A stretch of DNA of 64,000 nucleotides from an uncultured virus (IMG/VR IMGVR_UViG_3300017728_001586) (Duplodnaviria > Heunggongvirae > Uroviricota > Caudoviricetes): the IMG/VR virus record IMGVR_UViG_3300017728_001586; one strand, 5' to 3'. Each line of letters starts with the position of its first letter. Position 1 is the stretch's first letter. The position numbers and the translations under genes were made by a program. Positions 40,091 through 61,021 of this stretch are shown one piece after another. The notes under the pieces were generated by a model that ran no database searches, was not told the origin of the DNA, and saw nothing but the letters and a program-made list of their open reading frames with translations.

Positions 40091-40801
40091 CTACTGTATC
40101 AACTTACCAAATCTATCTGTTCTGAACACTAAACCCATGTTTTCTTTATGCCATTCTTCGCCATTCTCTTCAATAAGAGTTTCTCCATCGGGATGTTGAA
40201 TCTCTATATTAAACGATATACTATATCTATCTTTATCTGTCGTGTTTGGTTCAACCATATGCATGGTGCCACTAGGAAATAAAAGTATGTCTCCAGTTTT
40301 TGGTTGCCAACCCCAAGATTCTTCCATTCTAGGTGAAGATAGAGCCATTCCAACATAGTGTTTAGTTGTTTCTATAAACTTAATATCTCCCTCGTCTCCG
40401 TCTGCCCTAATATAACATGCACCAGAATAAGTACAACCATTATGTAAATGTGGTGCATTATATCCACCTGGATAGTTTATGTTTCCCCATGAGTTATGCA
40501 TAACACATTGAGCAGTTCCTTTTTCAAATCCACAATAACCCATAATCTCTTCCGTCACTGTTCTTTTAATTTGTCTCATCAACTTATTGAATATGGGATT
40601 GTTATCGATACCATCGTTTGATTGCCAACCGAGACCTTTATTAGACCTTCTTCTACCTTCACGGTCTCTAGTTCTCATAGCGTCCATTTCATCCTTCAAC
40701 ATTTGAAAATACTCTGGCGTCAATCCTTCCACTTTGTCTTCTGGATTATATAACCATTCTCTAATACAAATTACTGCTGGACTAAATAATTTAATCGCCA
40801 T
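40091..40801 (-). CDS. 2OG-Fe(II) oxygenase (TIGR02466-like)
   Basis: GWQS, WGNIN, PHLH, SGACY, LFPS..H.V.PN, RYSISFN. Confidence 0.88.
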   Translation of the reverse strand: MAIKLFSPAVICIREWLYNPEDKVEGLTPEYFQMLKDEMDAMRTRDREGRRRSNKGLGWQSNDGIDNNPIFNKLMRQIKRTVTEEIMGYCGFEKGTAQCVMHNSWGNINYPGGYNAPHLHNGCTYSGACYIRADGDEGDIKFIETTKHYVGMALSSPRMEESWGWQPKTGDILLFPSGTMHMVEPNTTDKDRYSISFNIEIQHPDGETLIEENGEEWHKENMGLVFRTDRFGKLIQ

Positions 40802-41627
40802 CTATTTCTCCTTTATGAAATGGACACTCTGGTGGAGGTTCCATTTCTTTGAAATTCTTACCTTTTTGTTTCCAATGTCCTTCACTTCTATATGCACCCA
40901 TATTGTTGGGTTTCTCTTTTAATAGTTTATCGTACTTCTCTCTGTTTACTTGGTCCATGCTAGGAAGTTCTTGTACTCTTTCTTCGGTTCTATCTTTGTG
41001 CCATCCAGCAGTGTCTTTTAACTGATAAGTCGATACCCATTCTTCTCTTTTAAAAGGTATAACTTGAACTAGGGGAGTTCCTTTTGGTATAACAAACGAA
41101 TGACTAACTTTAGGATAGAAAATAATTTGTGAATTGTCTTGATTGATATTAAAGTCATCTGTATCTATAACACCTTGCCATGTTGCAAAATGATTGTTTT
41201 GAAATAAAAAGGGGTCTAAATAGAAACAAGAATAACCTTTTGGCGTTATTATATTCCAAGCATTTCTCATTTTAAATGCATCTTTAATTGGACCTTCTTC
41301 CCCCAAATAACTGAATGAGTGTGCAAACTGAGCTGCAGGATGAGAAGGAGATGCTTGAGATTGTGAAACCTCTTTGCCAAATTCTTGAGTATATGTTTTG
41401 CCGTTATCAAAAACAACTTCCATATCTCTATTTGCAAGAATATACCAACCAGATTTTAACCAATCATCCATTGCCGGACAAGCACGAATAGTCTGTATTC
41501 TTTGTCCTCTATCGTGTTGAAAGACTTTCATCTTTTTCCACCAATCAGGACTTAACGATTTAGCAAGAACTGGTTTCCAGTCTCTAAGACTCTCTTCGTT
41601 AAATGTAGTGAAATCTATCGTTGGCAT
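40791..41627 (-). CDS. DUF6065-like protein
   Basis: TIRACP, W-x-I-x-TPKGYS, GVIDTD, IPKGTPLVQVIPFKRE. Confidence 0.65.
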   Translation of the reverse strand: MPTIDFTTFNEESLRDWKPVLAKSLSPDWWKKMKVFQHDRGQRIQTIRACPAMDDWLKSGWYILANRDMEVVFDNGKTYTQEFGKEVSQSQASPSHPAAQFAHSFSYLGEEGPIKDAFKMRNAWNIITPKGYSCFYLDPFLFQNNHFATWQGVIDTDDFNINQDNSQIIFYPKVSHSFVIPKGTPLVQVIPFKREEWVSTYQLKDTAGWHKDRTEERVQELPSMDQVNREKYDKLLKEKPNNMGAYRSEGHWKQKGKNFKEMEPPPECPFHKGEIDGD

Positions 41628-42333
41628 TATATAATTCTTCCTTATCTACTAGTTCTATCTCGTCACCCCTAAGTACGATAGAACATCTATCTGCATATCG
41701 AGCTCGTTCTGTTGGTGCATCTGCACCATGTGGTATTCTTCCATCAAACATTAACAATCTGTTTGGTTTAAACTCTATACTTCCTATAGAATGTTTTTCT
41801 ATGTGTTCTTCTCTTCCATCTAAACCGGCTTGATAAACACCTTTATCATAAAATCTTAAATCTCCACCCCATGCAGGATTCCAGAATTTATTGTAGTAAT
41901 ATAGAAATGATAGGTTCCATTCATCTTGTTCATCACAATCACAATGAGTTGTACCATGTTGACCATGAGTTTGAGAATTGGTTCCCATATACTGAAATCT
42001 TTTCCATTTAAAACCAAAGTCTGTACATATTCTTCTGTTCAACCATCTAGCGTGTTCTACACTTTCGGTTGTTTCTCCATATTCCATTTCTGGATTACCA
42101 TAATCATCTGTTTTAAAGAATGATGCACCCCAAAGTTGATGATGAGGTAAACCTGTGGGATGTTGTGCGTTTACTTGATTTTGTTTAGCCCACCTAGGAC
42201 CTTCAGAAGTTTTACGATGAATCCATCGATGTATAGAAGTCTCTAAGTAATCATCGATTACATAGACTTTATTTCCTAAAGGAAAGTCTTTAATAGTAAA
42301 AGGTTTATCTACCTTGACTATTTCTAGGGACAT
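41599..42333 (-). CDS. 2OG-Fe(II) oxygenase (prolyl-hydroxylase-like)
   Basis: HCD, WNPAWGGDL, KPNRLLMFDGRIPH, R.S. Confidence 0.88.
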   Translation of the reverse strand: MSLEIVKVDKPFTIKDFPLGNKVYVIDDYLETSIHRWIHRKTSEGPRWAKQNQVNAQHPTGLPHHQLWGASFFKTDDYGNPEMEYGETTESVEHARWLNRRICTDFGFKWKRFQYMGTNSQTHGQHGTTHCDCDEQDEWNLSFLYYYNKFWNPAWGGDLRFYDKGVYQAGLDGREEHIEKHSIGSIEFKPNRLLMFDGRIPHGADAPTERARYADRCSIVLRGDEIELVDKEELYNANDRFHYI

Positions 42334-42336
42334 AAA

Positions 42337-42888
42337 CTACTCTATTAATGCTTTTTGTGGAGGTGGGAATCTATTAATATATTCTTCTACATCTGGAAGT
42401 AAATCTTCTCTAGTTGATTTTACATCATTCATAACATTTACATAGATGTTCCACAGTACATCATAGTATTCCAATACTCTTCTTGCATCTGACCTTAAAG
42501 GATGATTTGAACCATCTCTACCTGCAGCCATAACATCTACCAGACTTTCAAATCCATAAGATTGAATTTGTTGGTCTAAGTAATTTCTACCAACATCATT
42601 AATTTGTTGACTGTATTGATTGGATAATGTCACATCGGAAGGTGGAACAGAATTTTCAATGTAGTTTTCGATTGCATCTAACTCAACATCTGTTAATGAA
42701 ATTTTTTCTTGTTCATCAAACTGAACATTGTCTTTCCATTCCATAATCTTGACTTCGATGTCATCATAGATAAGAACATCATACTCAAACCCCAAATTAG
42801 GTTTATCGACATTATCATGTCTCCATTCTAGGCCATTTGGTTTTCTAATAGTGAGATGACCATTCTCACAATAAATTAACATATTCAT
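42337..42888 (-). CDS. Hypothetical protein, resembles tail-fibre accessory/chaperone proteins
   Basis: LD..QSYGFES...W......LP C-terminal pattern. Confidence 0.5.
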   Translation of the reverse strand: MNMLIYCENGHLTIRKPNGLEWRHDNVDKPNLGFEYDVLIYDDIEVKIMEWKDNVQFDEQEKISLTDVELDAIENYIENSVPPSDVTLSNQYSQQINDVGRNYLDQQIQSYGFESLVDVMAAGRDGSNHPLRSDARRVLEYYDVLWNIYVNVMNDVKSTREDLLPDVEEYINRFPPPQKALIE

Positions 42889-42902
42889 AACAACTCCATA
42901 AT

Positions 42903-44450
42903 TTAGTTTTGATGTTTGTTTTTAAATCTTTCATACATATTTAGGTGTTCTATTTCAGAAGTATCCATACCTTCAATCCAAGGACCGCCTCTAGTATAAT
43001 GTATAGCACAAGCACGCCACTTTTCTTCTTGTGTATCATGCCCCTCAGTTATAACATACCATTCTGGTATTTCTGATATCTTATCTGTCCATTCAAATTG
43101 ATGTAGATATTTACCACTTTCAGTATTGATAACTTCTGGTGTAAGTTTTTTACAGTCTTCATGACCATTATTAAATATCATTAATGATGACCAAAGTTTT
43201 TTAGGATAAGATACATTCTTTTCACCGTTAAATTTTGTTTCAGCATAAGTATCAAAATCATACTGAACACATGCAACTGCATCATCTAAATCTAAGTAGT
43301 AGAACATTGGTAAGATACTTTCATTGAATAGTATATCATCATCAATAAAAATACTAAATCCTTCATAGTTTTCTAAGTAAGGAATTAAGAATCTACTATA
43401 TGTGAACTCTGTTGATTGAGCTGCATACTCTCTATTATACTCTGGAATCTTTGATATGTCAAGAAACTTTATCTCAGGAGTCCAATCTCCTAATATATCA
43501 TGTACATCACCACGACCTGCTCCAAATAATATACTACTCTTAAGACATTTAGCACTTAGTTCTGCAATGTCTTTGTGTCTACTATCATATCCGACATAGA
43601 TTGTCAAGGGTTTGCCAGCAGAAAGTTTATTTACTTTTTTATTGAAGTCTGTCACATCTCCTCTGAAGTTCATCTTCAATAAGTCACTATGTATTTCTAA
43701 ATATCCACGAGTGAATGAAAACGACATTGAGTAGTGGGCTGCATTTCTTTCTACAAGTTGCGACTTCATTTCCTCAATCATTTCATCTATGGGTGTTTCT
43801 GGAAGAGGTATAGCATCGTGGTCATCCCATATCCATAAATCTAAGTCTGGGTCATCCATAGTTTCGAAAACACCTGAACGAACAGAACCTGGATGTATAG
43901 ATAACTGATACATTCGTTCATCTCTGGAGTTCATACCTGCTGTAGCTACAGTACCTTGAATTGCATTCCATAGACCTTCTTTTCTGATACTATCGACTAA
44001 CCAATGTGCCTTTGCACCATGATAATATACAGCATTAAGACTACCATCTTGTTGTTCGCTTAACTTAGTACCTGTAAATTCTTCTATCTTTTGATATTCA
44101 TCATTTGAATTTTTAAAATCCATACCTGCAATTCCTGGTTTTGGATTTTCGGGTGGTGCAGTGTATCCTTTAGAAAGAAAGTAATGATATGCCCATGAAT
44201 GAGATTGTAGTTTGTTCCAACCAAGAAACTTTTGTTCCTTGATTAACTTAGTCATATCACCCCATTTGACCTGTTTTAATTTTCCTGTTTTGTTCGCTGT
44301 CACCCATTTTAAAGATTTATATGCTTCTGTTTCTTTATAATCTTTTGATACATCAAAAGAACCCAACTGAACATGTGTGTTCTTATCTGTTGGATCCCAA
44401 TCTTTGAGAAGTTCCTTTGTGTGCTCGAGTGAGTCTGATTTTACGCTCAT
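42903..44450 (-). CDS. Two-domain protein: unknown (ParB/Srx-like) N-terminus + GT-A glycosyltransferase
   Basis: IYVGYDSR, STEFTYSRFLIPYL, DxD motif FIDDDIL, YPKKLWSSLMIFN, LHQFEW, HYTRGGPW. Confidence 0.85.
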   Translation of the reverse strand: MSVKSDSLEHTKELLKDWDPTDKNTHVQLGSFDVSKDYKETEAYKSLKWVTANKTGKLKQVKWGDMTKLIKEQKFLGWNKLQSHSWAYHYFLSKGYTAPPENPKPGIAGMDFKNSNDEYQKIEEFTGTKLSEQQDGSLNAVYYHGAKAHWLVDSIRKEGLWNAIQGTVATAGMNSRDERMYQLSIHPGSVRSGVFETMDDPDLDLWIWDDHDAIPLPETPIDEMIEEMKSQLVERNAAHYSMSFSFTRGYLEIHSDLLKMNFRGDVTDFNKKVNKLSAGKPLTIYVGYDSRHKDIAELSAKCLKSSILFGAGRGDVHDILGDWTPEIKFLDISKIPEYNREYAAQSTEFTYSRFLIPYLENYEGFSIFIDDDILFNESILPMFYYLDLDDAVACVQYDFDTYAETKFNGEKNVSYPKKLWSSLMIFNNGHEDCKKLTPEVINTESGKYLHQFEWTDKISEIPEWYVITEGHDTQEEKWRACAIHYTRGGPWIEGMDTSEIEHLNMYERFKNKHQN

Positions 44451-44487: not shown

Positions 44488-45954
44488 TTAGGAATTAACA
44501 GGTGTTCCTGGCCATGTTTGTGACAATGAACCATCCCAACGGATAACAGGTGTTTGACCTTGTCTAGCATATGTACTAGGTGACCTATGTTGATAAGTCG
44601 TTGGTGTCTGACCTTGTCTAGCATATGTAGAAGGACTTCTATGTTGATAAGTCGTTGGTGTTTGACCTTGTCTAGCATATGTAGAAGGACTCTGATGTTG
44701 ATATGTAAGAGGTGTCTGACTATTTGCAGGATTTCTGTAAGTAAACGGACTTCTATGGTCATATGTTAAAGGAGACCTGTGGTCATATGTCAACGGACTT
44801 CTATGGTCATATGTAAATGGAGTCTGATTATTTCTTATAAACGGATTCTGAGCATTTACAGGATTCTGATAGTTCGCTGTTGTTTGTCTGTTTCTAATAT
44901 TAGGTTCTTGTTGAGCTCTAATATTAGGTTCTTGTTGTGACCTTATGTTTGGTTCTTGAGCATTTCTAATAAACGGATTTTGTGCATTAGCAATATACGG
45001 AGATTGTGCATTTCTAATATTAGGTTCTTGCGTTACCGTTTGACCTGAACGAATATTAGGTTCTTGTTTTGCCCTAATATTAGGTTGTTGAGCATTACTA
45101 GGTGATTGAGCATCTCTAATATTAGGTTCTTGTTGATTCTTAATAGTAGGTTGTTGAGCACTCTGCTGTTTGTTTCTAATATTAGGTTCTTGTTGTGACC
45201 TTATGTTTGGTTCTTGTGCTGACTGTTGCGCTGAACGAATATTAGGTTCTTGTTGTGACCTTATGTTTGGTTCTTGTGCATTTGAAGTGGTTTGTGCGTT
45301 TGCAATATAAGGTGTTTGTCTGTTTCTAATATTAGGTTCTTGTGCATTTGCAGTGTTTTGTCTGTTTGCAATATAAGGTGTTTGTGCATTTCTGATATTA
45401 GGTTCTTGAGCTGCACTAGCCCCTTGTGCATTAGCAATGTAAGGAGTCTGAAAGTTTCTGATATTTGGTTCTTGAGCAGACTGTTGAGAATCTCTTATAT
45501 TAGGTTCTTGTTTGTTCTTAATTGTAGGTTGCTGAGCATTACTAGGTGACTGAGCATCTCTAATATTAGGTTCTTGTTGGTTTCTAATATTAGGTTGTTG
45601 TATGCTTCTAATATTGGGTTGCTGATTGTTCCTTATATTAGGTTCTTGATTATTCGCAATGTATGGACTCTGGAAAGTATAAGGTTGTTGACCAGTATAA
45701 GGAGTCTGACCATTCTTAATAGTAGGTTGTTGATTATTTCTAATATTAGGTTGTTGATTATTCGCAATATAAGGACTCTGGAAAGTATAAGGAGTCTGAC
45801 CAGTATAAGGAGTCTGACCAGATGCAATATATGGCGACTGATATGTAAATGGTTGTTGACCAGTATAAGGTTGCTGGCCATTAGCAATAGACGGAGTTTG
45901 CACATTAGAAGTGCTTGGCGATTGAGCGATGCCAATTAGAGGTTGCTGTGGCAT
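44488..45954 (-). CDS. Repeat protein B1 (QEPNIR-rich; mirror partner of 45995..48097)
   Basis: 488 aa of 4/6/8/10-residue Pro-anchored units; GGGAG RBS. Confidence 0.85.
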   Translation of the reverse strand: MPQQPLIGIAQSPSTSNVQTPSIANGQQPYTGQQPFTYQSPYIASGQTPYTGQTPYTFQSPYIANNQQPNIRNNQQPTIKNGQTPYTGQQPYTFQSPYIANNQEPNIRNNQQPNIRSIQQPNIRNQQEPNIRDAQSPSNAQQPTIKNKQEPNIRDSQQSAQEPNIRNFQTPYIANAQGASAAQEPNIRNAQTPYIANRQNTANAQEPNIRNRQTPYIANAQTTSNAQEPNIRSQQEPNIRSAQQSAQEPNIRSQQEPNIRNKQQSAQQPTIKNQQEPNIRDAQSPSNAQQPNIRAKQEPNIRSGQTVTQEPNIRNAQSPYIANAQNPFIRNAQEPNIRSQQEPNIRAQQEPNIRNRQTTANYQNPVNAQNPFIRNNQTPFTYDHRSPLTYDHRSPLTYDHRSPFTYRNPANSQTPLTYQHQSPSTYARQGQTPTTYQHRSPSTYARQGQTPTTYQHRSPSTYARQGQTPVIRWDGSLSQTWPGTPVNS

Positions 45955-45994
45955 TAGATTTTACTCCCTAATCTTAATTTAATTATCATCTTCA

Positions 45995-48097
45995 TTATTT
46001 TTGCCCAATTGGTAGACCTTGGTTGTTAAAGTTATGTGCTAACATTCCATTAACAAAGAAGTTCGAGTTATCTTCAATATCAGTTAAGTTATAAACTTCC
46101 ATTTCTGAATGTTCTTCTACTGATACTATCTCTAGTCCCATTTCATCTTGTCTATCAAACATTATTCCATCTAACATACTGAATACACTATCTCCAACTG
46201 TAAGTTCATGTGTTTCTATATCTTCCATCCAACTATGTTCTTTGACTGATTTCTCAACATCAAATGCACCCCATTCGCCATTTGGTAGCATCAATGGGTG
46301 AGTATCAGTCATCTGTAGAATTCTACCATCTGAGAATGTTATATCCCATATAGAACTGATTGGTTGAGGATTAATTTGTTGTATTCTCTTAGGTTCAAGT
46401 AATTTAGTACTTTCGTTCCAAGACATGACCCATTGACCAATAACACATGACTCGATAGGTGCATGTGAACCATCGCCTAACCATATCATTGAACCTGGAG
46501 CGAAGCAACCTCCGCCTCCTCCTCCACCACCAAAGGTAAACGGATTTCTGTATCCATAAGATGCAGGAGACTGATTGTTTGCAATCGAAGGCGTTCTATG
46601 TTGATAAGTGAAAGGATTTCTTCCACTAAATGGGTTTCTAGCAGAGTTTGGTTGTCTTGCCTGATAAGTGAACGGTTGTCTTGCACTAAATGGTTGTCTA
46701 GCACTATTCGGTTGTCTTGCCTGATATGTACTAGGTGACCTGTGATTATATGAACTAGGCGACCTATGGTCGTATGTAAATGGTTGTCTTGCACTAAATG
46801 GGTTTCTAGCAGCGTTAGGTTGTCTTGCCTGATATGTACTAGGTGACCTATGTTGATATGTACTAGGCGACCTATGGTCATATGTATATGGTGACCTGTG
46901 ATTATATGTAGTAGGTGACCTATGGTTGTAAGTAAACGGATTACGATATGTAAACGGTGACCTATGGTCATATGTAAATGGCGACCTATGTTGATAAGTA
47001 AACGGACTTCTATAAGGTGACCTATGGTCATATGTACCAGGTTGTCTATTGTTGTAAGTACTAGGATTCTGGTAAATACTTGGCGACTGATGCTGATAAC
47101 TACTAGGTTGTCTGTTCTGATAGGTACTCGGATTCTGGTAAATACTTGGCGACTGATGCTGATAAGTACTAGGTTGTCTGTTCTGATAGGTACTTGGATT
47201 CTGATAGATACTCGGTGACTGATGTTGATAAGTCAACGGACTTCTATGCTGATAAGTGAACGGACTTCTATAAGGCGACCTATGGTCATATGTCAACGGA
47301 CTTCTATGGTCATATGTAAACGGACTTCTATAAGGTGACCTATGGTCATATGTTAAAGGAGACCTGTGATTATAAGTAAACGGATTACGATATGTAAACG
47401 GTGACCTATGGTCATATGTAAATGGTGACCTATGTTGATAGATGAACGGACTTCTATAAGGCGACCTATGGTCATATGTATTAGGTTGTCTATTACTATA
47501 TGTAGAAGGTGACCTATGGTCATATGTAAATGGTGACCTATGTTGATATGTCAACGGACTTCTATGTTGATATGTCAACGGACTTCTATGATTATATGTA
47601 GAAGGATCCTGATATGTTCTAGGGTCTCTATATGTAGAAGGCGACCTATGTTGATATGTGCCAGGTTGTCTAGCATTTCTAATATTAGGTTCTTGTTGTG
47701 ACCTAATATTTGGTTCTTGTTGATTTCTAATATTAGGTTCTTGTGCATTTACTGGATTTTGATAAATCGCAGGTTGTCTTCTATCTCTAATATTAGGTTC
47801 TTGTGCATTAGCAATATAAGGATAAGGATTCTGTTTGTTTCTTATATTAGGTTCTTGTGCATTAGCAATATAAGGATAAGGATTCTGTCTGTTTCTTATA
47901 TTGGGTTCTTGTGCGTTTGCGATATAAGGATAAGGTTGTTGAACACTCTGTTGTCCAGAAGCATTATTCCAACCGGTAGGCGTCTTTACATAAATCTGGT
48001 CTGCAGCTTTCCATGTGCCTGAGTCTGTTTTTACCCATGCACCTCGGGTTGCATTCCAACCGGTTGGTGTTTTTACCTTTTGTGAGCCTGTCGCCAT
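45995..48097 (-). CDS. Repeat protein A1 (YxHRSP-rich) with C-terminal Gly8-Hint domain
   Basis: N-terminal VK-x-x-x-G-W hairpin motifs, long Tyr/His/Arg/Ser/Pro repeat, then CFAPG...TDTHP...NFFVNGMLAHN. Confidence 0.88.
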   Translation of the reverse strand: MATGSQKVKTPTGWNATRGAWVKTDSGTWKAADQIYVKTPTGWNNASGQQSVQQPYPYIANAQEPNIRNRQNPYPYIANAQEPNIRNKQNPYPYIANAQEPNIRDRRQPAIYQNPVNAQEPNIRNQQEPNIRSQQEPNIRNARQPGTYQHRSPSTYRDPRTYQDPSTYNHRSPLTYQHRSPLTYQHRSPFTYDHRSPSTYSNRQPNTYDHRSPYRSPFIYQHRSPFTYDHRSPFTYRNPFTYNHRSPLTYDHRSPYRSPFTYDHRSPLTYDHRSPYRSPFTYQHRSPLTYQHQSPSIYQNPSTYQNRQPSTYQHQSPSIYQNPSTYQNRQPSSYQHQSPSIYQNPSTYNNRQPGTYDHRSPYRSPFTYQHRSPFTYDHRSPFTYRNPFTYNHRSPTTYNHRSPYTYDHRSPSTYQHRSPSTYQARQPNAARNPFSARQPFTYDHRSPSSYNHRSPSTYQARQPNSARQPFSARQPFTYQARQPNSARNPFSGRNPFTYQHRTPSIANNQSPASYGYRNPFTFGGGGGGGGCFAPGSMIWLGDGSHAPIESCVIGQWVMSWNESTKLLEPKRIQQINPQPISSIWDITFSDGRILQMTDTHPLMLPNGEWGAFDVEKSVKEHSWMEDIETHELTVGDSVFSMLDGIMFDRQDEMGLEIVSVEEHSEMEVYNLTDIEDNSNFFVNGMLAHNFNNQGLPIGQK
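46031..46507 (-). other. Hint (intein-like) autoprocessing domain, 159 aa
   Basis: Cys1 (CF), block B TxxH, terminal His-Asn followed by Phe; no endonuclease insert. Confidence 0.85.
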
Positions 48098-48129: not shown

Positions 48130-50784
48130 TTAAGAGTAAAGAACCCATAAATCGCCAACTGCGCCATCACTTCCGCCTGGTGCTGATGTTGACTGATATA
48201 TGTTTCTCGCTGTGCCACCACTGTTTGTTGCATTTGTAATTGTCAATGCGCCAGTGTTTACTGCACTTGGGGTAATCGTTAAATCACCTGTTGATGCACC
48301 TGTAAATGTTCCTGTTCCGAATGTGACTGCATCAGCACTTTCGTCCCAACCAATAAATACATTGGCATCACTTCCTCTTTCGATAACAAAACCTGAATCG
48401 CCTGAAGCAGAACCACTATTACCTGTCCCTAACTCTATAAGTTGGTCTTCGATAGTTGTATTTGTTGCCGAATTGGTTACTGTTGAACCATTAACTGTTA
48501 AGTCGCCTGTGAGAACTAAGTTTCCAAATTGAACATTACTTGATGTTCCAACTGCCTGTCCAATAGAGATTGTTGCGGTTGCACCTTCTCCAGAACCACT
48601 TACTGAGACACCAGTTCCTTGACTTACACCTGCAATATAATTACCTGTTGTGTCTGTTCCAAGTGCGACTGAGTTAGCAGCGACTGTAGTAGAGATACTA
48701 ACATCACCTAAATTGGTCATTGTAGCAGAACCTGTCACATCGCCTGTCAAGGATATTGTTGGGTCACTAACATTCAAATCAATTGTGCCATCTGCATCTT
48801 GATATGTTGCAGTAATACCACTTTCAGTATTACTTGAGAACATCGCCCCAGCGATATCTTGTACATTCTCTGTTGATAATTGAGTGTTAGTTGTTGTGAC
48901 TGAACCACCCAATGCAACTGATTGACCATCAATTGTTATCGTACTATTAGCAAGTTTTGCATTTGTAATTGAACCTGCAAGTTTGGATTGATTGATTGAC
49001 CCTGCCAACATGGCATTAGTAATGTCGTTATCACCAATAACAAAGTCAAGATTACCATTTGTATCATCGTATGATACTGAGATACCTGTTTCGGTACCAT
49101 CTAACATACCACCAACAATGTCTTCGACTTGTTCTGTTGTTAATTGTGTATTTGTTGTAGTTATATTACCACCAAGTGATACTGCTGTACCATCAATAGT
49201 GATTGAAGAATTAGCAAGTTTTGCGTTTGTAATACCACCTGCAAGTTTGCCTTCATTGATAGACCCTGCCAACATGGCATTTGTGACACCAAGTGCTTTT
49301 ACTTGAACTGCATCTGAATCTAATTCGATTGAACTATCGTCAACCCCTACTGCAAGAACACCACTTGAGAATGAAAGACCATTACCAGCGACTGAAGAAG
49401 ACAATGCGATATCATTTGCGTTTGCAGTAATACCGTCTCCCCCAATAACATTAACTGTCACATCACCAGAAGTTCCCCCACCAGTCATACCAGTTCCAGC
49501 AACTACTGAAGAAATATCACCAGCATCGTTTGTGAAACTAATTACACCAGTTGAACTGTTGTATGATAAGTCACCACCAGCAGATATTAAACCTCTAACA
49601 TGTGATGTTGATACTGCAAGGTCGATTGCACCATCGTTTGCATCGTCATAAGATGCAGTAAGACCTGTATGTGTACCATTGGTTGCAATTTGAGCACCAA
49701 CTGTATCTTGTATATTCTCGTAAGGTACTCTAATCTCTAAACTTCCATTTGCATCGTCATATGTCATAGCGACATTGACACCAGAAGTTAGTAGAGCATC
49801 TACTCTATCGTCTACTCTTTCGTTTGTGAAGTATAGGTTACTTGAACCTTCTGTAATCTCGTCTGTATTATCTTTACCTGCAACTGAAGAGTCTACATAT
49901 GCCTTGATTGATTGTTGCGTTGCAAGATGAGTATTACTATTAGAAGCCATATTGTCTTGGTCTAAGACAGCAGTACCCGAAACTGTTCCATTTAGAATTG
50001 GAGTCGTTATTGTTTTGTTTGTTAAGTTTTGTGCAGTAGTTAAATCTGCTGTTATCGAAGTATCGATTGTCACATCGTTTGCATTTGCGATAAGACCATT
50101 ACCTGCAACAACATTTACAGTGACATCGCCACTTGTTCCGCCACCTGTTAGACCAGTTCCTGAGACTACACTTGTTATGTCTCCAGTTGGAACTGTTGCA
50201 ACTTGAGCGTCAACATATGCTTTAACTGATTGCTGACTTGGAAGTTTAGTAGCACTATTACTAGACATATCATCTTCATCAACTAATGCGTTTGTAATTC
50301 TTGCATCTGCTCTTGTATTTGTGAAGTATAAATTACTTGAACCTTCTGTAATCTCGTCTGTATTGTCTTTTGTTAGAATACTTGCATCTACATATGCTTT
50401 AATTGATTGTTGAGTAGCGGCATGAGTTGCTGAGTTTGAAGACATGTCATCTTCATCTTTGAAGTTGACTGCAATATCGTCTGCATTTACAGTAATACCT
50501 GTACCAGCACCAATGTTTAGTGTTGCATCACCTGAACTTGCAGTACCAGTTAAACCAGCACCAGCGTTCACACCTGTGATGTCACCTTGTTGTCCGTTAA
50601 TTGTTAGTGTGCCAGCAGCGTCATCATATGTTAATGAGATACCTGTTCCAGCAGTTAGTAGAGAATCAACTCTATCGTCAACTGCCTCGTTGACAGCGGC
50701 GCCAGTAATTAAACCAGCAGATGTTATGACCTCAGTAGTTCCTACTGTTAGACCATTTTTGATTATGAAATTTTTACTTGTCAT
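48130..50784 (-). CDS. Modular tail-fibre-like virion protein
   Basis: Repeated modules: DEDDMSSNSAT..QQS.KAYVD x3, TDEITEGSSNLYFT x2, GDIT.V.AG.G..G x3, TNAMLAGSI x2; C-terminal STSAP..G..GDLWV. Confidence 0.8.
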   Translation of the reverse strand: MTSKNFIIKNGLTVGTTEVITSAGLITGAAVNEAVDDRVDSLLTAGTGISLTYDDAAGTLTINGQQGDITGVNAGAGLTGTASSGDATLNIGAGTGITVNADDIAVNFKDEDDMSSNSATHAATQQSIKAYVDASILTKDNTDEITEGSSNLYFTNTRADARITNALVDEDDMSSNSATKLPSQQSVKAYVDAQVATVPTGDITSVVSGTGLTGGGTSGDVTVNVVAGNGLIANANDVTIDTSITADLTTAQNLTNKTITTPILNGTVSGTAVLDQDNMASNSNTHLATQQSIKAYVDSSVAGKDNTDEITEGSSNLYFTNERVDDRVDALLTSGVNVAMTYDDANGSLEIRVPYENIQDTVGAQIATNGTHTGLTASYDDANDGAIDLAVSTSHVRGLISAGGDLSYNSSTGVISFTNDAGDISSVVAGTGMTGGGTSGDVTVNVIGGDGITANANDIALSSSVAGNGLSFSSGVLAVGVDDSSIELDSDAVQVKALGVTNAMLAGSINEGKLAGGITNAKLANSSITIDGTAVSLGGNITTTNTQLTTEQVEDIVGGMLDGTETGISVSYDDTNGNLDFVIGDNDITNAMLAGSINQSKLAGSITNAKLANSTITIDGQSVALGGSVTTTNTQLSTENVQDIAGAMFSSNTESGITATYQDADGTIDLNVSDPTISLTGDVTGSATMTNLGDVSISTTVAANSVALGTDTTGNYIAGVSQGTGVSVSGSGEGATATISIGQAVGTSSNVQFGNLVLTGDLTVNGSTVTNSATNTTIEDQLIELGTGNSGSASGDSGFVIERGSDANVFIGWDESADAVTFGTGTFTGASTGDLTITPSAVNTGALTITNATNSGGTARNIYQSTSAPGGSDGAVGDLWVLYS

Positions 50785-53292: not shown

Positions 53293-54927
53293 TTAAAATG
53301 TTCCACCGTCAATAGCAGTAATGGTAACTGCACCACTTGATACTGTAAAGTTAGCACTAGCAAAACTAGCGATACCTTTATTAGATGTCGTTGCATCTTC
53401 TCCAGTAATGGTTGCTGTACCACCTGAGTACGCTACATCCATACCTTCGCCAGCAGCGACAATTACAGAACCTAAGTTAGAAGCAGTTGATACTTCAGCA
53501 GCAATCGTAATTGCACCTGCACCATTAGTGATATCAATACCATCACCAGCAGTAAGAGTAGCAGCATCCATTAAACCTGAAGATGTGTCACCAATTAAGA
53601 TTTGACCATCTGTAGGAGCTGAACCTGCATAACTGTCAATACTTCCACTCATACTTGCGTTAGCAAGAGTTAAGTTTCCGAATTTACCTGCCATAGCAGT
53701 TCCAGAGAATACTGAAGAACTATCTGTTGCACTTGTTAGAGCGACAAAAGAACCATCTGTATCATCCATACCAAAGAAACCAATTTTAGCACCACCGGAG
53801 TTGTACTTAAATTTAATACCTCTGTCTAGGTTATCGTCTGAACTATCTGAACCAATTTCGAATACAGGGTCAGCGATATTTACTGTTGTTGAGTTTACTG
53901 TTGTTGTAGTACCATTAACTGCCAAGTTTCCTGTGACTGTTAAGTTACCAGATGTTGTTAAAGTTGCAGTTGTAATATCGTCTGATATTAAGTTTCCTGA
54001 AACTGTTAAGTTATTTGCGACTGTCACATTGTTTGGAAGACCAACTGTTAAAGTTTGTCCTGACATTGATGTTTCAATCTCGTTTGCTGTACCAGCGATT
54101 GTTAGTGACTGAGAGTCTAAGTCTACTGCACCTGTTCCACTGTCACCAGCCATATCTAAGTCTGAAGCGGTTACACTACTGTCTACATATGCTTTTACTG
54201 ATTGTTGAGAAGGAACTTTAACTGCTGAGTTAGAAGCCATGTTGTCTTCGTCTACAAAGAAGTTAATCTTATCTAATGTCACATTACTATCTAAGATAGC
54301 TGCAGTATCTACTGCATCATCTGCTAATTTAGCAGCGTTGATAGCGTTGTTTGCGATTGTCATAACACCTGTGTCGGCCATAGTGGCGTCACCAGACATT
54401 ACATTGTCAATCCATTTTGATGTTCCTGTATCATATAATAACATCGCACCATCACCTGCGGATGTGATGTTTACATCACTACCACCAGCAAGGGTTGAAG
54501 TTGTTGAAGCGAAAGAAAGATTTCCTGAACCATCTGTTGCTATAACTTGGTTAGCAGAACCGTCTGCGGTAGGCAGCGTGAAGGTTACTGAAGAACCAAG
54601 AGTATCTGCAGCTTTAAGACCAACGAAGTTTGTTCCGTTATCGGAATCTTCCATGATTTGTAAAGTTGCACCAGCAGTAGAACCATTACCAACTTTAAAG
54701 TTAGCAGGTGTTGCTGAAGAACCAGCAAGCATATCAGTATAATACTTACCACCAATCGCATGGATTAGGGCTGTAGAATTATCTGAATCTACTGATTCGA
54801 TGAATAGTTTAGCAGATGCACCAGAATTACTTCTATCTTGTACATACGCCAATTCACCTTCCGATAAATCTGATATCGCCGGAGCAGATGCGCCTGTACT
54901 TCTTTTGATTTGAATTACTGTTGCCAT
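53293..54927 (-). CDS. Tail-fibre-like virion protein
   Basis: MATVIQIKRS..GELAY N-terminus; fibre modules; ends DGGTF. Confidence 0.78.
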   Translation of the reverse strand: MATVIQIKRSTGASAPAISDLSEGELAYVQDRSNSGASAKLFIESVDSDNSTALIHAIGGKYYTDMLAGSSATPANFKVGNGSTAGATLQIMEDSDNGTNFVGLKAADTLGSSVTFTLPTADGSANQVIATDGSGNLSFASTTSTLAGGSDVNITSAGDGAMLLYDTGTSKWIDNVMSGDATMADTGVMTIANNAINAAKLADDAVDTAAILDSNVTLDKINFFVDEDNMASNSAVKVPSQQSVKAYVDSSVTASDLDMAGDSGTGAVDLDSQSLTIAGTANEIETSMSGQTLTVGLPNNVTVANNLTVSGNLISDDITTATLTTSGNLTVTGNLAVNGTTTTVNSTTVNIADPVFEIGSDSSDDNLDRGIKFKYNSGGAKIGFFGMDDTDGSFVALTSATDSSSVFSGTAMAGKFGNLTLANASMSGSIDSYAGSAPTDGQILIGDTSSGLMDAATLTAGDGIDITNGAGAITIAAEVSTASNLGSVIVAAGEGMDVAYSGGTATITGEDATTSNKGIASFASANFTVSSGAVTITAIDGGTF

Positions 54928-56762: not shown

Positions 56763-58364
56763 TTACTCCTGGTTATTATCATCGTTTTCATCGTCTTCTG
56801 GTTCTTCGTTTTCGTAATACAGAGTCACTTTTAGCGATATTGTATGAGTTCCCATATTAGCATCTGGACTTGTAAATGTAAATGTATTAGTTGTCTCGTA
56901 CTCCTTAACATCTCCACCGCTAGCATTATCACATTTCCACTTGGTAAAAGTACCATTAGTTGTACCAAAACTCCAAGAAGTGCTAGTTATTGCAGTGCCT
57001 GTAGAAATGTTTCCGCTCAGAGTACCCTCATTGAAGGTACCATGAGTAGAGGTACTTCTAGCAACAGAATAATTAGTTCCAGCATCGTCTATTTTGTATA
57101 GAAGAATAGCACTATTTGCATTAATGCTTTGCTGCTGACCATTTTGAGTACCGCCGGTATTTGTTTCTTCCAGATATGCATCAGCATTCTGTCCAGGTGG
57201 TATACCATCAGATGAAGCATAAACATATACATTAACATCATTACTTGATTCAACACAATATAATACAATCCAAGGTTCTAGACCGCTATGGTCCGAAACT
57301 GAAACCTCACAATGAACTTCAGTATATGGAGCAGTCGTAGTACCAATGTTTTGCTGTTGTAATTCACTAAAGATAAACGGTGTTCGTGCATTTCTTGAGT
57401 TTTGTGTATTGACAATTACTGGAGTTGTAAATGGTGACCTATGTTGGTAAATACTCGGCGATTGATGCTGATAAATTGACGGACTTCTAAATGGTGACCT
57501 ATGCTGATAAGTACTTGGCGATTGATGCTGATAAATTGACGGACTTCTAAATGGCGACTGATGCTGATAAGTACTTGGCGATTGATGCTGATAAATTGAC
57601 GGACTTCTAAATGGCGACTGATGCTGATAAATCAACGGACTTCTATGGTCATAAGTGTCTGGACTTCTATGTTGATAGATACTAGGTTCTCTATTATCGT
57701 ATGTAGAAGGTGACCTATGGTCATAGGTAAATGGTGACCTATGTTGATAAGTAAACGGACTTCTATAAGGCGACCTATGGTCATATATTAAAGGTTCTCT
57801 ATTTTGATATGTAGAAGGTGTTCGAGAAGGACTTTGGTGGTTATATGTTGAAGGACTTCTGTGGTCATATGTAAAAGGACTTCTATGTTCATATGTTAAA
57901 GGTTGTCTATTTGTATAGATGCTAGGCGTTCTAGTCTGAGTCGGTGTACGATATATCAAAGGACTTCTATGTTGATATGTAGAAGGTTCTCTATGTTGAT
58001 AATTTAACTGATAAGTAAACGGTGACCTATGTTGATATGTCAACGGACTTCCATGTTGATATGTAGAAGGTGTTTGAATATTGTATATTGAAGGCGCCCT
58101 ACTTGTGTATATAGCAGGCGACCTGTGATTATAGGTTTTTTGTGCGACACCTTGAGCAATTATTGGATTTTGTGCATTACTAGGCGTCTGAACATTTGTA
58201 GGTGTTCTACTTTGATATGTAAATGGTTGTGTTCCTTGAGTAGTAACCTGATAAATTCTTTGTGCGATATTCGGTTGTTGACCGGCTGCAGGTACTCTGG
58301 CTAAAAAGGGTTGCTGAAAAGTTCCACCATTCTTATCATGTTTTATAAAAATATCGTCTGACAT
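56763..58364 (-). CDS. Repeat protein A2 (YxHRSP-rich) with globular C-terminal domain
   Basis: 533 aa; about 300 aa of repeat followed by about 190 aa non-repetitive domain. Confidence 0.85.
   Translation of the reverse strand: MSDDIFIKHDKNGGTFQQPFLARVPAAGQQPNIAQRIYQVTTQGTQPFTYQSRTPTNVQTPSNAQNPIIAQGVAQKTYNHRSPAIYTSRAPSIYNIQTPSTYQHGSPLTYQHRSPFTYQLNYQHREPSTYQHRSPLIYRTPTQTRTPSIYTNRQPLTYEHRSPFTYDHRSPSTYNHQSPSRTPSTYQNREPLIYDHRSPYRSPFTYQHRSPFTYDHRSPSTYDNREPSIYQHRSPDTYDHRSPLIYQHQSPFRSPSIYQHQSPSTYQHQSPFRSPSIYQHQSPSTYQHRSPFRSPSIYQHQSPSIYQHRSPFTTPVIVNTQNSRNARTPFIFSELQQQNIGTTTAPYTEVHCEVSVSDHSGLEPWIVLYCVESSNDVNVYVYASSDGIPPGQNADAYLEETNTGGTQNGQQQSINANSAILLYKIDDAGTNYSVARSTSTHGTFNEGTLSGNISTGTAITSTSWSFGTTNGTFTKWKCDNASGGDVKEYETTNTFTFTSPDANMGTHTISLKVTLYYENEEPEDDENDDNNQE
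57440..57630. repeat. 60-bp tandem repeat x3 (coding)
   Basis: ggacttctaaatgg..gatgctgataa lines repeat with 60-nt period; boundaries approximate. Confidence 0.85.
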
Positions 58365-58374
58365 ATTTTGTTCA

Positions 58375-60807
58375 CTATATTAAAAAGAAAAGATGACCTA
58401 TCTCTTTTCCACTACCACTAGGAAGACCACTAGATAAATCTGAGTCTGTTATCACACTATAATCTAACTCTATGTCGTTACCATCTAGAGTGATACCATT
58501 ACTCACTGAAGCTTCTAATGTTATCTCACCATCTGTAGTTGTATTAGTACCACCGTCTGGATTATCATTGTAGGTGAGTTTTATACCTTTATTTAGTTCA
58601 ACATTTGCAGTACCATTTTGAGCTATTGTTCCATCACCACTTGCATCGAACTTAAATTGTTTAGCGACTCTGTTGTCTGTAAAGAACACAGCAGAAGCGT
58701 CTTCAGTTAAATTACTAGTACTACCAGCTTGGTCACCAGGGTTCCAAGCAGAACCACTCCATATTAGTATTTGACCAGTACTTGCACCACTATTGACATT
58801 TGCTAAATCTTCTAAGTCGATTGATGGTAAGTCTGATAGAGTTAAAGCAGTAAGAGTAGTTGCAATAGATACATTACCCTTTGCAGTCTGAGTCTGGGTA
58901 CCAGTGACTGCACCTGTTAATGTGAAAGTTGAATTTGCAATTGTTAAATCTATTGTACCATCAGCGTCATCGTCATTGTAAGTTGCTGTAAGACCTGTAT
59001 GTGTACCATTGGTTGCAATCTGAGCACCAGTAATGTCTTGTACTTTCTCGGTGAGTGTGACATTTGACCATGAAGAACCAGTTTGAACTAAAATTTGGTC
59101 ATTAGTATTGTTTGCATCTGAAACATCGTATAAGTCATTTAGAGCAAGTTCGGTAGAAGTAATATCTCCTTTAGTCAAAGCTCTAAGAGTAGTTGCAATT
59201 GTCAAATTACCTTTTGCAGTCTGAGTAGCAGTACCTGTGACTCCACCTGTTAATGTGAAAGTTGAATTGTCTACTACTAGATTTGTTTTGCCTGTATCAT
59301 CGTTGTATGTGACTGATAGACCTGTTTCAGTATTACCAGCGAACATTGCACCAGCGATATCTTCAACTCTTTCTCGCATGGGTGTGTTTTCCCATTGGTC
59401 TGTGGTATCATTATACAGTAAAACATGGTCTTCTGCAAGCGCAATAGGATGGTCTACATTTGCAAGATAATCTATATTCTTTAATGCGATTCTAGCGTCT
59501 GCTCTTGCATCTGTATAATATAGATTAGAATTATGTTCTGTTAAGTTTTGTGTTGTGTGGTTTGCAATACTTGAAACTGTACCAGTCAAAGAACCTGCGT
59601 TTGCATTACTGTCGTGGTCAGATGTTGTATCTAGTATTGTGTGAGTACCAGCAAAGTTTTTAATGTTATTAACTACAGAACTACCTGATTTGAATACTGA
59701 GTTAGTATCACCTGTTATATCATCGACACTTGTAATGTCGCCACCAGTGATATTCAATGTACCATCTGTTAGAGTTCCTACTGTTGCAGTTCCTGATACA
59801 TTTGATAAGTTTGAATATACATTTGACCATCTCTTTGATGTTAAACCCAATGAATATGTATTAGTTGTTTCTGGTCTTAGATGAGAGTTTGCATAACCTG
59901 TGAATGTAATTGTATCACTAGCGGCATTACCTAATGTTGTGTTTCCGTCTACTGTAAGGTTTGCATTTAAGGTTGTATTATCAACTACTTGAAGTGTTGA
60001 TTGCATATGCACATCACCATCAATGTCTACAGCATCTAAATGAGATGTACCATTTACATCGATGTCGCCTTCGATATCTAAGAATCCTGAGAATGTTCCG
60101 TTGACTGCGCCTGTTATAGAACCACTGTTGATACTCATTGTAGAATCAGTGATAGTAGGTGCAGTTAGTGTCTTGCCTGTTGTGAGTAAGATATCATCTT
60201 CTGCAAATGTCTTACCTGCAAGTTGTATTGTATATCCAGATTCTAGTAGAGTTGTTGGTGATGAACTATCTCCATTTATAATAACACCGTTTGCATTGGT
60301 GTTATAGATTGTGTTCTCAACTGTTTTCTGGAAGAATGATGCAACTGAGTTTGCAATATTTGTTCCTACAAATGCACCAGTGTATGAGTATACATGAAGT
60401 CTATCGTTAGTAGACATTGCATTTGCTTGACCAGATGCATAAGTACCTGTTAGTGTGATACCCTCATGCGAACCTGTACCAGTAGGATTAGAAATAATGA
60501 AATCTACATCTTCTATCAAATGTCTTTCGTTTTTAAATACTTGAATCTTATCTTTTACAAAAATTAAGTTATTTGCAAACTCATCGTTACCTGTAAATAG
60601 TGTTTGGTTTGTTGATGCAACGAATACGAACTCTTGGAAGAAAAACTGTTTGTCTTCTAAAACATTGACAGCATCAACTAGTGTTCCGTTGTTTCCAGAT
60701 TTTAATCCTTCTCTTAGACCAGAAACTTCACCCACATCATATGCGAGTTCGTTATAGGTAGTTCTAAAGTCTTCAATTGTTGCGAAGTTGTCTACTGTTT
60801 TAGCCAT
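58375..60807 (-). CDS. Modular tail-fibre-like virion protein
   Basis: NLYYTDARAD, VEDIAGAM..NTETG, TFTLTG.VTG x2; C-terminal LPSG..GHLFF. Confidence 0.78.
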   Translation of the reverse strand: MAKTVDNFATIEDFRTTYNELAYDVGEVSGLREGLKSGNNGTLVDAVNVLEDKQFFFQEFVFVASTNQTLFTGNDEFANNLIFVKDKIQVFKNERHLIEDVDFIISNPTGTGSHEGITLTGTYASGQANAMSTNDRLHVYSYTGAFVGTNIANSVASFFQKTVENTIYNTNANGVIINGDSSSPTTLLESGYTIQLAGKTFAEDDILLTTGKTLTAPTITDSTMSINSGSITGAVNGTFSGFLDIEGDIDVNGTSHLDAVDIDGDVHMQSTLQVVDNTTLNANLTVDGNTTLGNAASDTITFTGYANSHLRPETTNTYSLGLTSKRWSNVYSNLSNVSGTATVGTLTDGTLNITGGDITSVDDITGDTNSVFKSGSSVVNNIKNFAGTHTILDTTSDHDSNANAGSLTGTVSSIANHTTQNLTEHNSNLYYTDARADARIALKNIDYLANVDHPIALAEDHVLLYNDTTDQWENTPMRERVEDIAGAMFAGNTETGLSVTYNDDTGKTNLVVDNSTFTLTGGVTGTATQTAKGNLTIATTLRALTKGDITSTELALNDLYDVSDANNTNDQILVQTGSSWSNVTLTEKVQDITGAQIATNGTHTGLTATYNDDDADGTIDLTIANSTFTLTGAVTGTQTQTAKGNVSIATTLTALTLSDLPSIDLEDLANVNSGASTGQILIWSGSAWNPGDQAGSTSNLTEDASAVFFTDNRVAKQFKFDASGDGTIAQNGTANVELNKGIKLTYNDNPDGGTNTTTDGEITLEASVSNGITLDGNDIELDYSVITDSDLSSGLPSGSGKEIGHLFFLI

Positions 60808-61021
60808 GTAATTTCTCTACTATATCTTTTAATAAGTCTTTAATTTCTGTTACCTCTTTCTTAAGAGTATTTATTTCATTCTTTTGAGTTTTTAAAAACT
60901 CTCTTCTTCTCATTGTCAACCTATACTGTTCTTCGTTAGTATTGATAATGGCATGAGAGGATTCATCCCTAATTAGGTCTGAAAATCCTTCCACTTTATG
61001 TACTATCTTACGCAAGAGCAA
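60800..61021 (-). CDS. Conserved small coiled-coil protein (start uncertain)
   Basis: KVEG..DL.RD..S.AIIN motif and C-terminal heptads. Confidence 0.6.
   Translation of the reverse strand: MLLRKIVHKVEGFSDLIRDESSHAIINTNEEQYRLTMRRREFLKTQKNEINTLKKEVTEIKDLLKDIVEKLHG

Follow-up and report, generated by a model that had tools for sequence, protein, structure and literature searches.

Two adjacent genes, A1 and B1, on the minus strand of a 64,000-nt stretch of DNA from an uncultured virus of the Caudoviricetes (IMG/VR record IMGVR_UViG_3300017728_001586; the whole stretch is referred to here as the window) encode repeat proteins built of irregular, proline-anchored units. A first-pass annotation had observed that the succession of units in A1, read from the N to the C terminus, matches that of B1 read from the C to the N terminus, and had proposed that the two chains zip together as an antiparallel heterodimer. 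Is this mirror real, and if so, what maintains it? The observation was confirmed, and the mirror proved to be stronger than the annotation had stated. The two genes and their parts are listed below; class 1 denotes the class of pairs to which A1/B1 belongs, and BIL stands for bacterial intein-like.

45995..48097, minus strand: gene A1, 700 aa; N-terminal cap, repeat arm, Gly8, Hint/BIL-like domain, and 11-aa tail
47942..48097, minus strand: A1 N-terminal domain, aa 1–52, with a repeated VKTPTGWN motif; kept in all class-1 partners
46532..47992, minus strand: A1 repeat arm, aa 36–522, proline-anchored units of 2, 4, 6, or 8 residues, mirrored by B1
46508..46531, minus strand: Gly8 linker, A1 aa 523–530, its first Gly opposite B1 Met1
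46031..46507, minus strand: Hint/type A BIL-like mini-intein domain, A1 aa 531–689, with Cys1, a block-B His-Pro, and a terminal His-Asn
45998..46030, minus strand: 11-aa A1 tail FNNQGLPIGQK following His-Asn, with Phe at +1
45955..45994, minus strand: 40-nt spacer between A1 and B1, with GGGAG at 45964..45968, 9 nt before the B1 ATG
44488..45954, minus strand: gene B1, 488 aa, arm over its full length, mirror of A1 aa 36–523
44491..44553, minus strand: B1 C-terminal tail PVIRWDGSLSQTWPGTPVNS, opposite A1 aa 36–56; kept in class-1 partners

The genes share one orientation, and no terminator-like site was found on the minus strand of the spacer between them. Splitting the proteins after each proline gave units of 2, 4, 6, and 8 residues in A1 and of 6, 8, 10, 12, and 14 residues in B1. 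The longer B1 units consist of 8-mers with proline-free inserts of 4 or 6 residues, and once these inserts are split off, the N-to-C series of unit lengths in A1 is identical to the C-to-N series in B1. Reversed B1 was then slid along A1 without gaps, and coincidences of proline on proline were counted. At the best offset, 56 of the 59 B1 prolines lie opposite A1 prolines, across all 488 residues of B1; the runner-up mirror offset gave 44 coincidences and the best forward (non-mirror) offset 32. Comparison with shuffled unit order, a check that the first-pass annotation had suggested, placed the mirror far above chance, since 5000 shuffles of the B1 units gave a mean of 20.1 coincidences (standard deviation 3.0, maximum 33), corresponding to a z score of 11.9. 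The register obeys a simple rule (1-based numbering), in which A1 residue a faces B1 residue b when a + b = 524. Pairing spans A1 residues 36–523, with the last residue of B1 opposite A1 Tyr36. Twelve A1 prolines in this span have no partner; they are the extra prolines of YRSP, YQNP, YQDP, and PYP units, together with one in the cap, and they sit opposite the proline-free inserts of B1.

The individual correspondences described in the first-pass annotation are visible in this alignment: three 18-aa repeats at the start of A1 face three at the end of B1, three QEPNIR units of A1 face three YDHRSP units of B1, three 22-aa repeats face three of the same length, the YRSP inserts of A1 face 4-residue inserts in B1, and 6-mers face 6-mers. 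Its unit code stood in part. HRSP indeed lies opposite PNIR, and NRQP or ARQP opposite PYIA, but each protein holds both unit types. The correct rule is that opposite types face each other, not that each protein carries one type.

To what extent is this arrangement shared by other loci? A scan of viral contigs with B1 yielded 60 loci, 47 of which hold a complete adjacent pair, and these reduce to 28 distinct pairs; the 13 loci excluded were cut by contig ends or, in L040, had the upstream gene split into two frames. Many of the 28 pairs are close relatives, and about 17 differ substantially. In what follows, the upstream, A1-like member of a pair is called U and the downstream, B1-like member D. 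In class 1a, U consists of the N-terminal domain, the arm, a Gly run, a Hint domain of 158–171 aa, and a tail of 4–12 aa, and D has no overhang (A1, L012, L014, L016, L035, L041, L043, L053, and the hold-outs L062–L064 described below). Class 1b is built in the same way, except that U stops about 10 residues past the Gly-rich turn. In class 2, found in a second pair of the window (A2/B2) and at five loci, U has no N-terminal overhang and ends in a non-repeat C-terminal domain of 150–230 aa, and D has an overhang of 29–36 aa. The ungapped mirror is present in all 28 distinct pairs (z = 7.1–12.5), with D ranging from 240 to 540 aa. Across class-1 pairs, the length of the U arm, measured from residue 36 to the Gly-rich junction, tracks that of D (r = 0.97), and the two differ by no more than 3 aa in 16 of 21.

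A hold-out set (L062–L065) was taken from another collection, in contigs that had been binned into metagenome-assembled genomes of four phyla and are probably mis-binned phage. In L062, 24 of 27 prolines are mirrored (z = 9.1). In L063 (3420..5212, plus strand), the gene order is reversed, with a B-type protein of 190 aa preceding an A-type protein of 404 aa that carries a Hint domain; the mirror is nevertheless intact (24 of 26 prolines, z = 9.4), indicating that gene order is not essential. L065 (4001..5137, plus strand) is a single gene of 378 aa with a U-type N-terminal domain at its start and a D-type C-terminal tail at its end. Four 10-mers follow the first cap and four precede the second, a GG-PP turn lies near the middle, and a glycosyltransferase family 8 (GT8)-like gene stands directly 3′ of it. 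By its sequence, L065 resembles a class-1 pair that has become fused naturally. Its AlphaFold2 (AF2) model, made from the single sequence, had a pLDDT of 45, with only the N-terminal cap hairpin reaching 70–81.

Other candidates for fused forms were sought. No longer, fused relative of B1 was found among proteins of 855–2440 aa, and a self-mirror scan of all repeat open reading frames (ORFs) of the 60 loci gave nothing above z = 5.3. A profile of the A-type N terminus produced 122 matches, the long ones being unrelated low-complexity, eukaryote-like proteins. P0086 (636 aa) combines an A2-like start with a B2-like end and was rejected, its ungapped self-mirror reaching only z = 1.8. Two short proteins, P0094 (119 aa) and P0120 (99 aa), join a class-2 N terminus to a class-1 C-terminal tail (RWDG...WP..P) and may be either mini-hairpins or the product of chimeric or partial gene calling.

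The second mirror pair lies in the same window:

56763..58364, minus strand: gene A2, 533 aa; arm aa 1–335, then a non-repeat C-terminal domain of ∼200 aa
55662..56756, minus strand: gene B2, 364 aa; mirrors A2 and overhangs it by 29 aa at the C terminus

Here 31 of the 39 B2 prolines face A2 prolines, compared with 12.3 ± 1.9 (maximum 21) in shuffles (z = 10). The cross combinations A1/B2, A2/B1, A1/A2, and B1/B2 gave only 15–21 coincidences. The same partner preference was evident when 18 pairs (the 17 substantially different pairs and A2/B2) were compared all against all: the cognate partner came out on top in 16 rows and in 16 columns of the 18 × 18 matrix, and the misses were two near-orthologous couples. 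The mirror is thus specific for the cognate partner. The C-terminal domain of A2 is rich in Ser, Thr, Asn, and Gly and ends in an acidic tail, and the B2 overhang is rich in Lys. The N terminus of A2, which has no overhang, and the reversed C terminus of B2 have residues in common (D, I, and K columns).

If the arms were held in register, a change of length in one would be expected to recur at the facing position in the other. The first-pass annotation had made such co-occurrence of indels in homologous pairs a check of its proposal, and they do co-occur at mirror positions, with arm lengths matched. L001 (identical to A1/B1) was compared with L014, which is about 70% identical. The U proteins differ by −14 residues at 314–328, −12 at 349–361, +4 at 415, and +2/+2/+2 at 483–507; the D proteins, expressed in facing U coordinates, differ by −14 at 321–334, −8 and −4 at 344–366, +4 at 417, and a net +6 at 484–511. 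From L028 to L027, both arms are shortened by 88 aa, with one further residue lost in the C-terminal tail of U.

The spacing and the chemistry of the units bear on the conformation of the arms. Of the 2809 distances between successive prolines in paired regions, 2722 (97%) are even, including 66 of 67 in A1 and 55 of 58 in B1. This two-residue period suggests extended β strands, and a proline about every 8 residues excludes long α helices. A collagen or polyproline helix, with its period of three, does not fit this even spacing (2, 4, 6, 8), and no run of at least four G-x-y triplets was found in any arm. Both arms are devoid of Cys, and the A1 arm contains 26 His, one per HRSP unit. The units of both proteins follow the pattern P-x-[T/I]...[R/Q]-x-P. 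Facing residues, pooled over the 17 pairs (1336 observations), gave the following most frequent combinations:

P−3 facing P+3: A·Y 332, H·R 207, G·Y 149
P−2 facing P+2: Q·T 443, R·I 348, R·T 130
P−1 facing P+1: S·N 229, Q·F 197, E·F 100, T·Y 95

Cross-strand pairing of an aromatic with a small residue is a known feature of antiparallel sheets. At odd offsets, the mutual information between facing residues was about 1.0 bit at the true register, 0.3–0.4 when shifted by one anchor, and 0.14 (maximum 0.21 in 200 trials) with random anchors. Complex prediction with A1 aa 1–141 and B1 aa 383–488 gave an ipSAE of 0.00 in two runs, with partner pLDDT below 50, from alignments of 16 sequences each; these values speak neither for nor against pairing.

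Could the mirror have its origin in the DNA? Watson-Crick complementarity of the A1 and B1 coding sequences at the mirror register was 24%–28%, compared with a mean of 25% over 61 shifts, and the best of 24 phases reached 34%. A blastn comparison gave no minus-strand match with E below 1; the longest was 13 nt and lay mostly around AATATT, the palindrome formed by Asn-Ile codons. Plus-strand blastn matches between the genes join like units to like units only, and both coding strands are C-rich by GC skew and base counts. The lack of complementarity between the coding strands indicates that the constraint acts on the proteins. The identical A1/B1 pair occurs in 8 separate viral contigs, the window or part of it was found in 20 marine metagenome runs from 18 studies, and 93%–94% of its sampled words are present in each of 15 DNA runs. 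The mirror is therefore neither an inverted repeat, an RNA duplex, nor an assembly chimera. Contigs of three RNA libraries from three studies (1426, 822, and 358 nt) span the A1–B1 junction; these are not proof of expression because RNA libraries can hold DNA and the contigs are without transcript ends. Two antisense ORFs (45292..45939 and 47717..48022, plus strand), reading ...SNIRFL..., are by-products of the repeats and not genes; such long antisense ORFs arise because the Asn-Ile codons AATATT are palindromic.

What lies at the ends of the mirrored region? Residues 1–35 of A1 overhang the pairing, and residues 36–52 lie opposite the C-terminal tail of B1. These mutually facing parts are the best conserved of the two proteins, with 55 invariant columns in the U N-terminal domain and 34 in the D C-terminal tail (16 sequences); in the class-1 alignment, the D tail includes invariant R, W, D, W, P, and P. 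At the opposite end, the first residue of D maps to the end of the U arm in every class, and in A1, a terminal intein-like domain that the first-pass annotation did not include sits where the N terminus of B1 arrives.

A1 aa 531–689 are a Hint fold with the features of a type A BIL. In all eight aligned Hint domains, a Cys directly follows the Gly run, and the block-B His-Pro (as TDTHP, TDSHP, or GGHP) and the terminal His-Asn are invariant. The residue at +1 after the Asn is F, F, F, F, G, A, G, or M, with the nucleophiles Cys, Ser, and Thr in none of the eight. Pfam PF14890 matched the region in A1 with E = 2e-7, below the curated cutoff, and the PDB sequence match was the NpuDnaB intein (4o1r). 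The AF2 model of the domain (pLDDT 81, pTM 0.79) had as its top Foldseek match BIL2 (6tmm; E = 1.6e-9, TM 0.71/0.80), one of 58 PDB matches at E ≤ 0.001. BIL2 6y75, the NpuDnaB intein 4o1r, and a C. thermocellum BIL (2lwy) were also matched (TM 0.7–0.85). According to one report, type A BILs and inteins end in His-Asn, the absence of Cys, Ser, or Thr at +1 separates BILs from canonical inteins, and type A BILs mostly cleave, although attack of a free amine on the thioester can lead to ligation of the flanks (PMC4031507). For BIL2 of the Tetrahymena BUBL locus, the N-flank is reportedly transferred to a lysine amine of other proteins (PMC8616854).

The A1 domain thus resembles BILs and mini-inteins in its Cys1, block-B His, His-Asn, lack of a +1 nucleophile, and Hint fold, and differs from them in its setting, the end of a repeat protein that is structural and encoded by a phage, where a Gly run precedes it and only 4–12 residues follow. 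No paper joining a bacterial intein-like domain with a phage tail fiber was found in the literature searched. In a representative library, six of seven full-length proteins with a U-type N-terminal domain carry the Hint domain. Class 1b lacks it, indicating that it is not needed for pairing as such. One library protein, P0109 (663 aa), has an A2-like start, an arm, a non-repeat domain, and then a Hint-like domain; this layout indicates that the self-processing module occurs behind a tip domain too.

The window belongs to an uncultured marine T4-like myophage, with genes for sheath, portal, major head protein, terminase, gp15, and a gp14-like neck protein; the portal is 54%–55% identical to those of Methylophilales phage Melnitz and Pelagibacter phage Mosig. 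Both mirror pairs are located between a VrlC-like gene and the gp14-like neck gene. The genes that flank A1/B1 include the following:

48130..50784, minus strand: 884-aa fiber-like protein directly upstream of A1 (PHROG tail fiber/structural matches, synteny)
42903..44450, minus strand: gene with a GT8 domain, directly downstream of B1 (PF01501 at cutoff)
41599..42333, minus strand: 2OG-Fe(II) oxygenase of the downstream cassette (PF13640)
40091..40801, minus strand: second 2OG-Fe(II) oxygenase of the downstream cassette (PF13759)

Class-1 pairs were found in the same gene order at 23 of 23 loci (fiber-like gene, U, D, GT8, ORF, 2OG oxygenase, ORF, 2OG oxygenase). The neck gene comes next in 19 of these, and the remaining stretches stop short of that point. 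In class 2, the order is fiber-like gene, U, D, fiber-like gene (five of five loci). From gene order, we take the position of the class-1 pair to correspond roughly to that of the T4 whisker gene wac. The region is described as the hypervariable "host recognition cluster" of pelagimyophages, and the searched portion of that text does not mention these proteins (PMC7029224). Judging by the sequence, the cassette (40091..44450, minus strand) might conceivably hydroxylate or glycosylate the Pro/Ser/Thr-rich arms.

What, then, keeps the two proteins in register? With a DNA-level origin excluded, selection on antiparallel pairing is the only fitting explanation found. The ungapped mirror, the facing of opposite unit types, the specificity for the cognate partner, the matched indels, and the absence of a nucleotide signal argue that the arms lie side by side. 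We consider it rather probable, with real room for doubt, that they form an antiparallel protein duplex, probably β-type, that makes up the shaft of a virion appendage. A1 residues 36–522 would run one way and the whole of B1 the other way alongside, in a register set by the kinds of facing units (HRSP with PNIR, NRQP with PYIA), whose lengths are always equal. Such a duplex of extended β-type strands would most likely be the thin shaft of a fiber or whisker. The N-terminal domain of A1 and the C-terminal tail of B1 would come together at one end, probably the end attached to the virion. At the other end, the N terminus of B1 would meet the Gly8 linker and the type A BIL-like domain, which is predicted to make a thioester at Gly530/Cys531 and probably to remove itself. 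An extended strand measures about 0.33 nm per residue, and the 488 residues, if fully extended, would reach about 160 nm. That A1 and B1 pair physically, we infer from these sequence patterns; the β strands, the role in a fiber, and the self-removal of the Hint domain follow with decreasing strength. The antiparallel pairing put forward in the first-pass annotation is borne out by the shuffle test and the matched indels, but its two-stranded 1:1 heterodimer is only one of several fitting stoichiometries: a 1:1 ribbon and a hairpin bundle such as A3B3 (a trimer of hairpins, comparable to the six-stranded gp37 needle) fit equally well.

Several points weigh against this duplex. The evidence that A1 and B1 touch is indirect, and known phage fibers are parallel homotrimers. 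Not every length change is compensated: D of L018 is 44 aa shorter, U of L051 88 aa shorter, and U of L020 18 aa shorter, each in a pair otherwise >99% identical to a compensated one, and L012, a pair about 90% identical to A1/B1, has an uncompensated one-residue shift. All four variants lie in tandem arrays. They may represent recent events, collapsed short-read assemblies, or tolerated mismatch; mismatches are confined to near-identical sequences, with none in diverged ones, which is the pattern expected of purifying selection on pairing. The divergent hold-out L064, which has proline-poor units, gave only 29 of 64 coincidences without gaps (z = 4.9), and its 52 of 64 with even-sized gaps is a raw count. 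The self-mirror of the single-gene L065 is modest (12 Pro-Pro pairs ungapped, z = 4.1) and is not significant when gaps are allowed (z = 0.7). Mutual information off the diagonal reaches 1.31 and 1.40, compared with about 1.0 on the diagonal, and values within a chain are equal to those between chains, which means that the data fix the types of facing units and not the residues that touch. Finally, the net charge (R+K minus D+E) is positive for both the A1 arm (+38; 57 versus 19) and B1 (+18; 41 versus 23), so charge does not drive pairing.

Other readings share part of this evidence. An extension that we regard as unlikely treats the pair as an analog of a nucleic-acid duplex, its register and choice of partner spelled out by a few complementary unit types so that several orthogonal duplexes could be built in one virion; the BIL thioester would then be resolved by the N-terminal amine of B1 to give a covalent hairpin. 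The zipper would hold the B1 N terminus beside the thioester, and the two gene products would be joined through the Gly8 turn in a templated ligation. This possibility draws on the single-gene form with both end caps in the relative L065 and on accounts, in two papers, of BILs passing their N-flank to a free amine, also on another protein (PMC4031507, PMC8616854). About as improbable in our estimation is an antiparallel pair that is not a fiber, for example a basic, Pro/Tyr/Arg-rich matrix or coat, hydroxylated and glycosylated by the downstream products and either produced inside infected cells or deposited on the capsid or host surface. The GT8-domain gene and two 2OG-Fe(II) oxygenases follow class-1 pairs at all 23 loci, the arms have a strongly basic character and abound in Pro, Tyr, Ser, and Thr, and class-1 pairs minus the Hint domain would have no receptor-binding tip. 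Adjacency of the cassette is, however, not independent evidence because it is shared by descent within one lineage; moreover, both mirror pairs lie among fiber-like genes of a structural operon, and the class-2 A-type protein carries an end domain of ∼200 aa, like a fiber tip.

Readings in which the two arms do not lie alongside each other fare worse. The long tail fibers of T4 consist of two half-fibers joined at a knee, and A1 and B1 could be homo-oligomeric half-fibers joined end to end (A1 C terminus to B1 N terminus) in a symmetric appendage; the exact mapping of the B1-type N terminus to the end of the A-type arm in every pair would fit. We give this little credence, since it leaves unexplained why opposite unit types always face each other, why indels of 2–14 residues are matched at mirror positions, and why the A1 N-terminal domain and the B1 C-terminal tail are jointly conserved. 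It is less probable still that the proteins never touch and are instead laid in opposite directions on a common periodic third partner (another fiber, the tail, or a polysaccharide) or owe their pattern to one processive modifying enzyme that acts on both. Nothing specific favors this, although it, too, would produce matched lengths, and an acidic polymer is a conceivable ligand for basic arms. It would require the third partner to repeat, in every phage, the same irregular order of units, and would need two templates for the cognate specificity inside one genome; complementary unit types would remain unaccounted for. The chance that the mirror is functionless, left over from an old inverted duplication of the DNA or created by faulty assembly, is close to nil. 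An inverted duplication would yield a mirrored unit order, and one of the 24 phases is 34% complementary, but complementarity is absent at the register, both coding strands are C-rich, and compensating indels in recent orthologs are impossible for a relic; an artifact is contradicted by the identical pair in 8 viral contigs and by the 15 DNA runs holding 93%–94% of the words.

How does the antiparallel duplex favored here compare with known structures? The needle domain at the tip of the T4 long tail fiber, gp37, is far shorter and contains iron and metal-binding His-x-His repeats; no H-x-H occurs in the A1 arm, B1, the A2 arm, or B2. An Atlas gp37_trimer lead scored 0.80, which is chance level, and no Pfam or PHROG family was found on the arms. 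In PDB similarity searches, B1 matched no chain with E below 0.4, and the A1 arm matched nothing. The needle is nevertheless alike in being a fiber shaft of antiparallel out-and-back strands with a distal domain at the turn, the position at which class-2 pairs such as A2/B2 hold their non-repeat domain; unlike the separate genes of 240–540 residues with proline-anchored units seen here, it is the product of one gene, a homotrimer with six strands (Bartual et al. 2010, as described in PMC9659904).

Long fold-back antiparallel stalks made of a single chain are found in the coiled coils of SMC, Rad50, and MukB and in the stalk of streptococcal antigen I/II. There, too, segments far apart in the chain come together antiparallel, which obliges their lengths and interruptions to vary in step. 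Those stalks are α-helical, or combine an α helix with a polyproline helix, whereas A1/B1 show even proline spacing, two genes, and mixed unit lengths that form an irregular "address." Heterodimeric coiled-coil zippers are heptad-based α helices, mostly parallel, tens of residues long, and have no units of variable length. They resemble the present pairs in that a periodic residue code sets partner and register, and here two orthogonal pairs coexist. The C-terminal intramolecular chaperones of phage tailspikes and fibers (endosialidases, T5 pb1) cleave themselves off and act on parallel trimers. The A1 C-terminal domain could likewise aid assembly or register and then cut itself off, but it has a Hint fold and thioester chemistry, and many class-1 partners are without it.

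The arms gave no match in NCBIfam, PHROGs, Pfam, or PDB sequence searches, and all Atlas scores were below 0.85. Among 50,697 records of cultured phages, there was no match for the DNA of the locus, B1, the A2 end domain, or the A1 N-terminal domain; the sole match of A1, in Vibrio phage F23s1, lies on the strand opposite to the annotated feature in a low-complexity stretch and was dismissed. No description of such mirror pairs was found in a literature set that leaves out most subscription journals. The remark of the first-pass annotation that it knew of no described phage fiber built in this way agrees with the absence of any family, PDB structure, cultured phage, or paper from these searches.

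If the arms do pair, they would represent a long, thin protein architecture of a kind that we have not found described. In such an addressable antiparallel duplex, the type and length of the units would encode the register, and indels would arise in pairs, much like the paired substitutions of RNA helices. Phage fibers, otherwise parallel homotrimers, would gain a heteromeric and antiparallel form, and protein designers would gain a modular, non-helical zipper that is inherently orthogonal. The twofold range of arm lengths may bear on how these phages reach scarce hosts, and the intein-like domain at the closing end would be a candidate case of self-processing or ligation in virion assembly.

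The neighboring structural genes have features of their own. Three fiber-like proteins (48130..50784, 53293..54927, and 58375..60807, all minus strand) share the motif …DEDDMSSNSAT.(L/A)..QQS(I/V)KAYVD… and Gly/Thr-rich repeats. One such protein is encoded directly upstream of each mirror pair and could be the structure to which the pairs attach. The VrlC-like protein (61008..63311, minus strand; phrog_358) has a Pro-rich stretch at its N terminus, consisting of PPPPPP followed by (PV)n.

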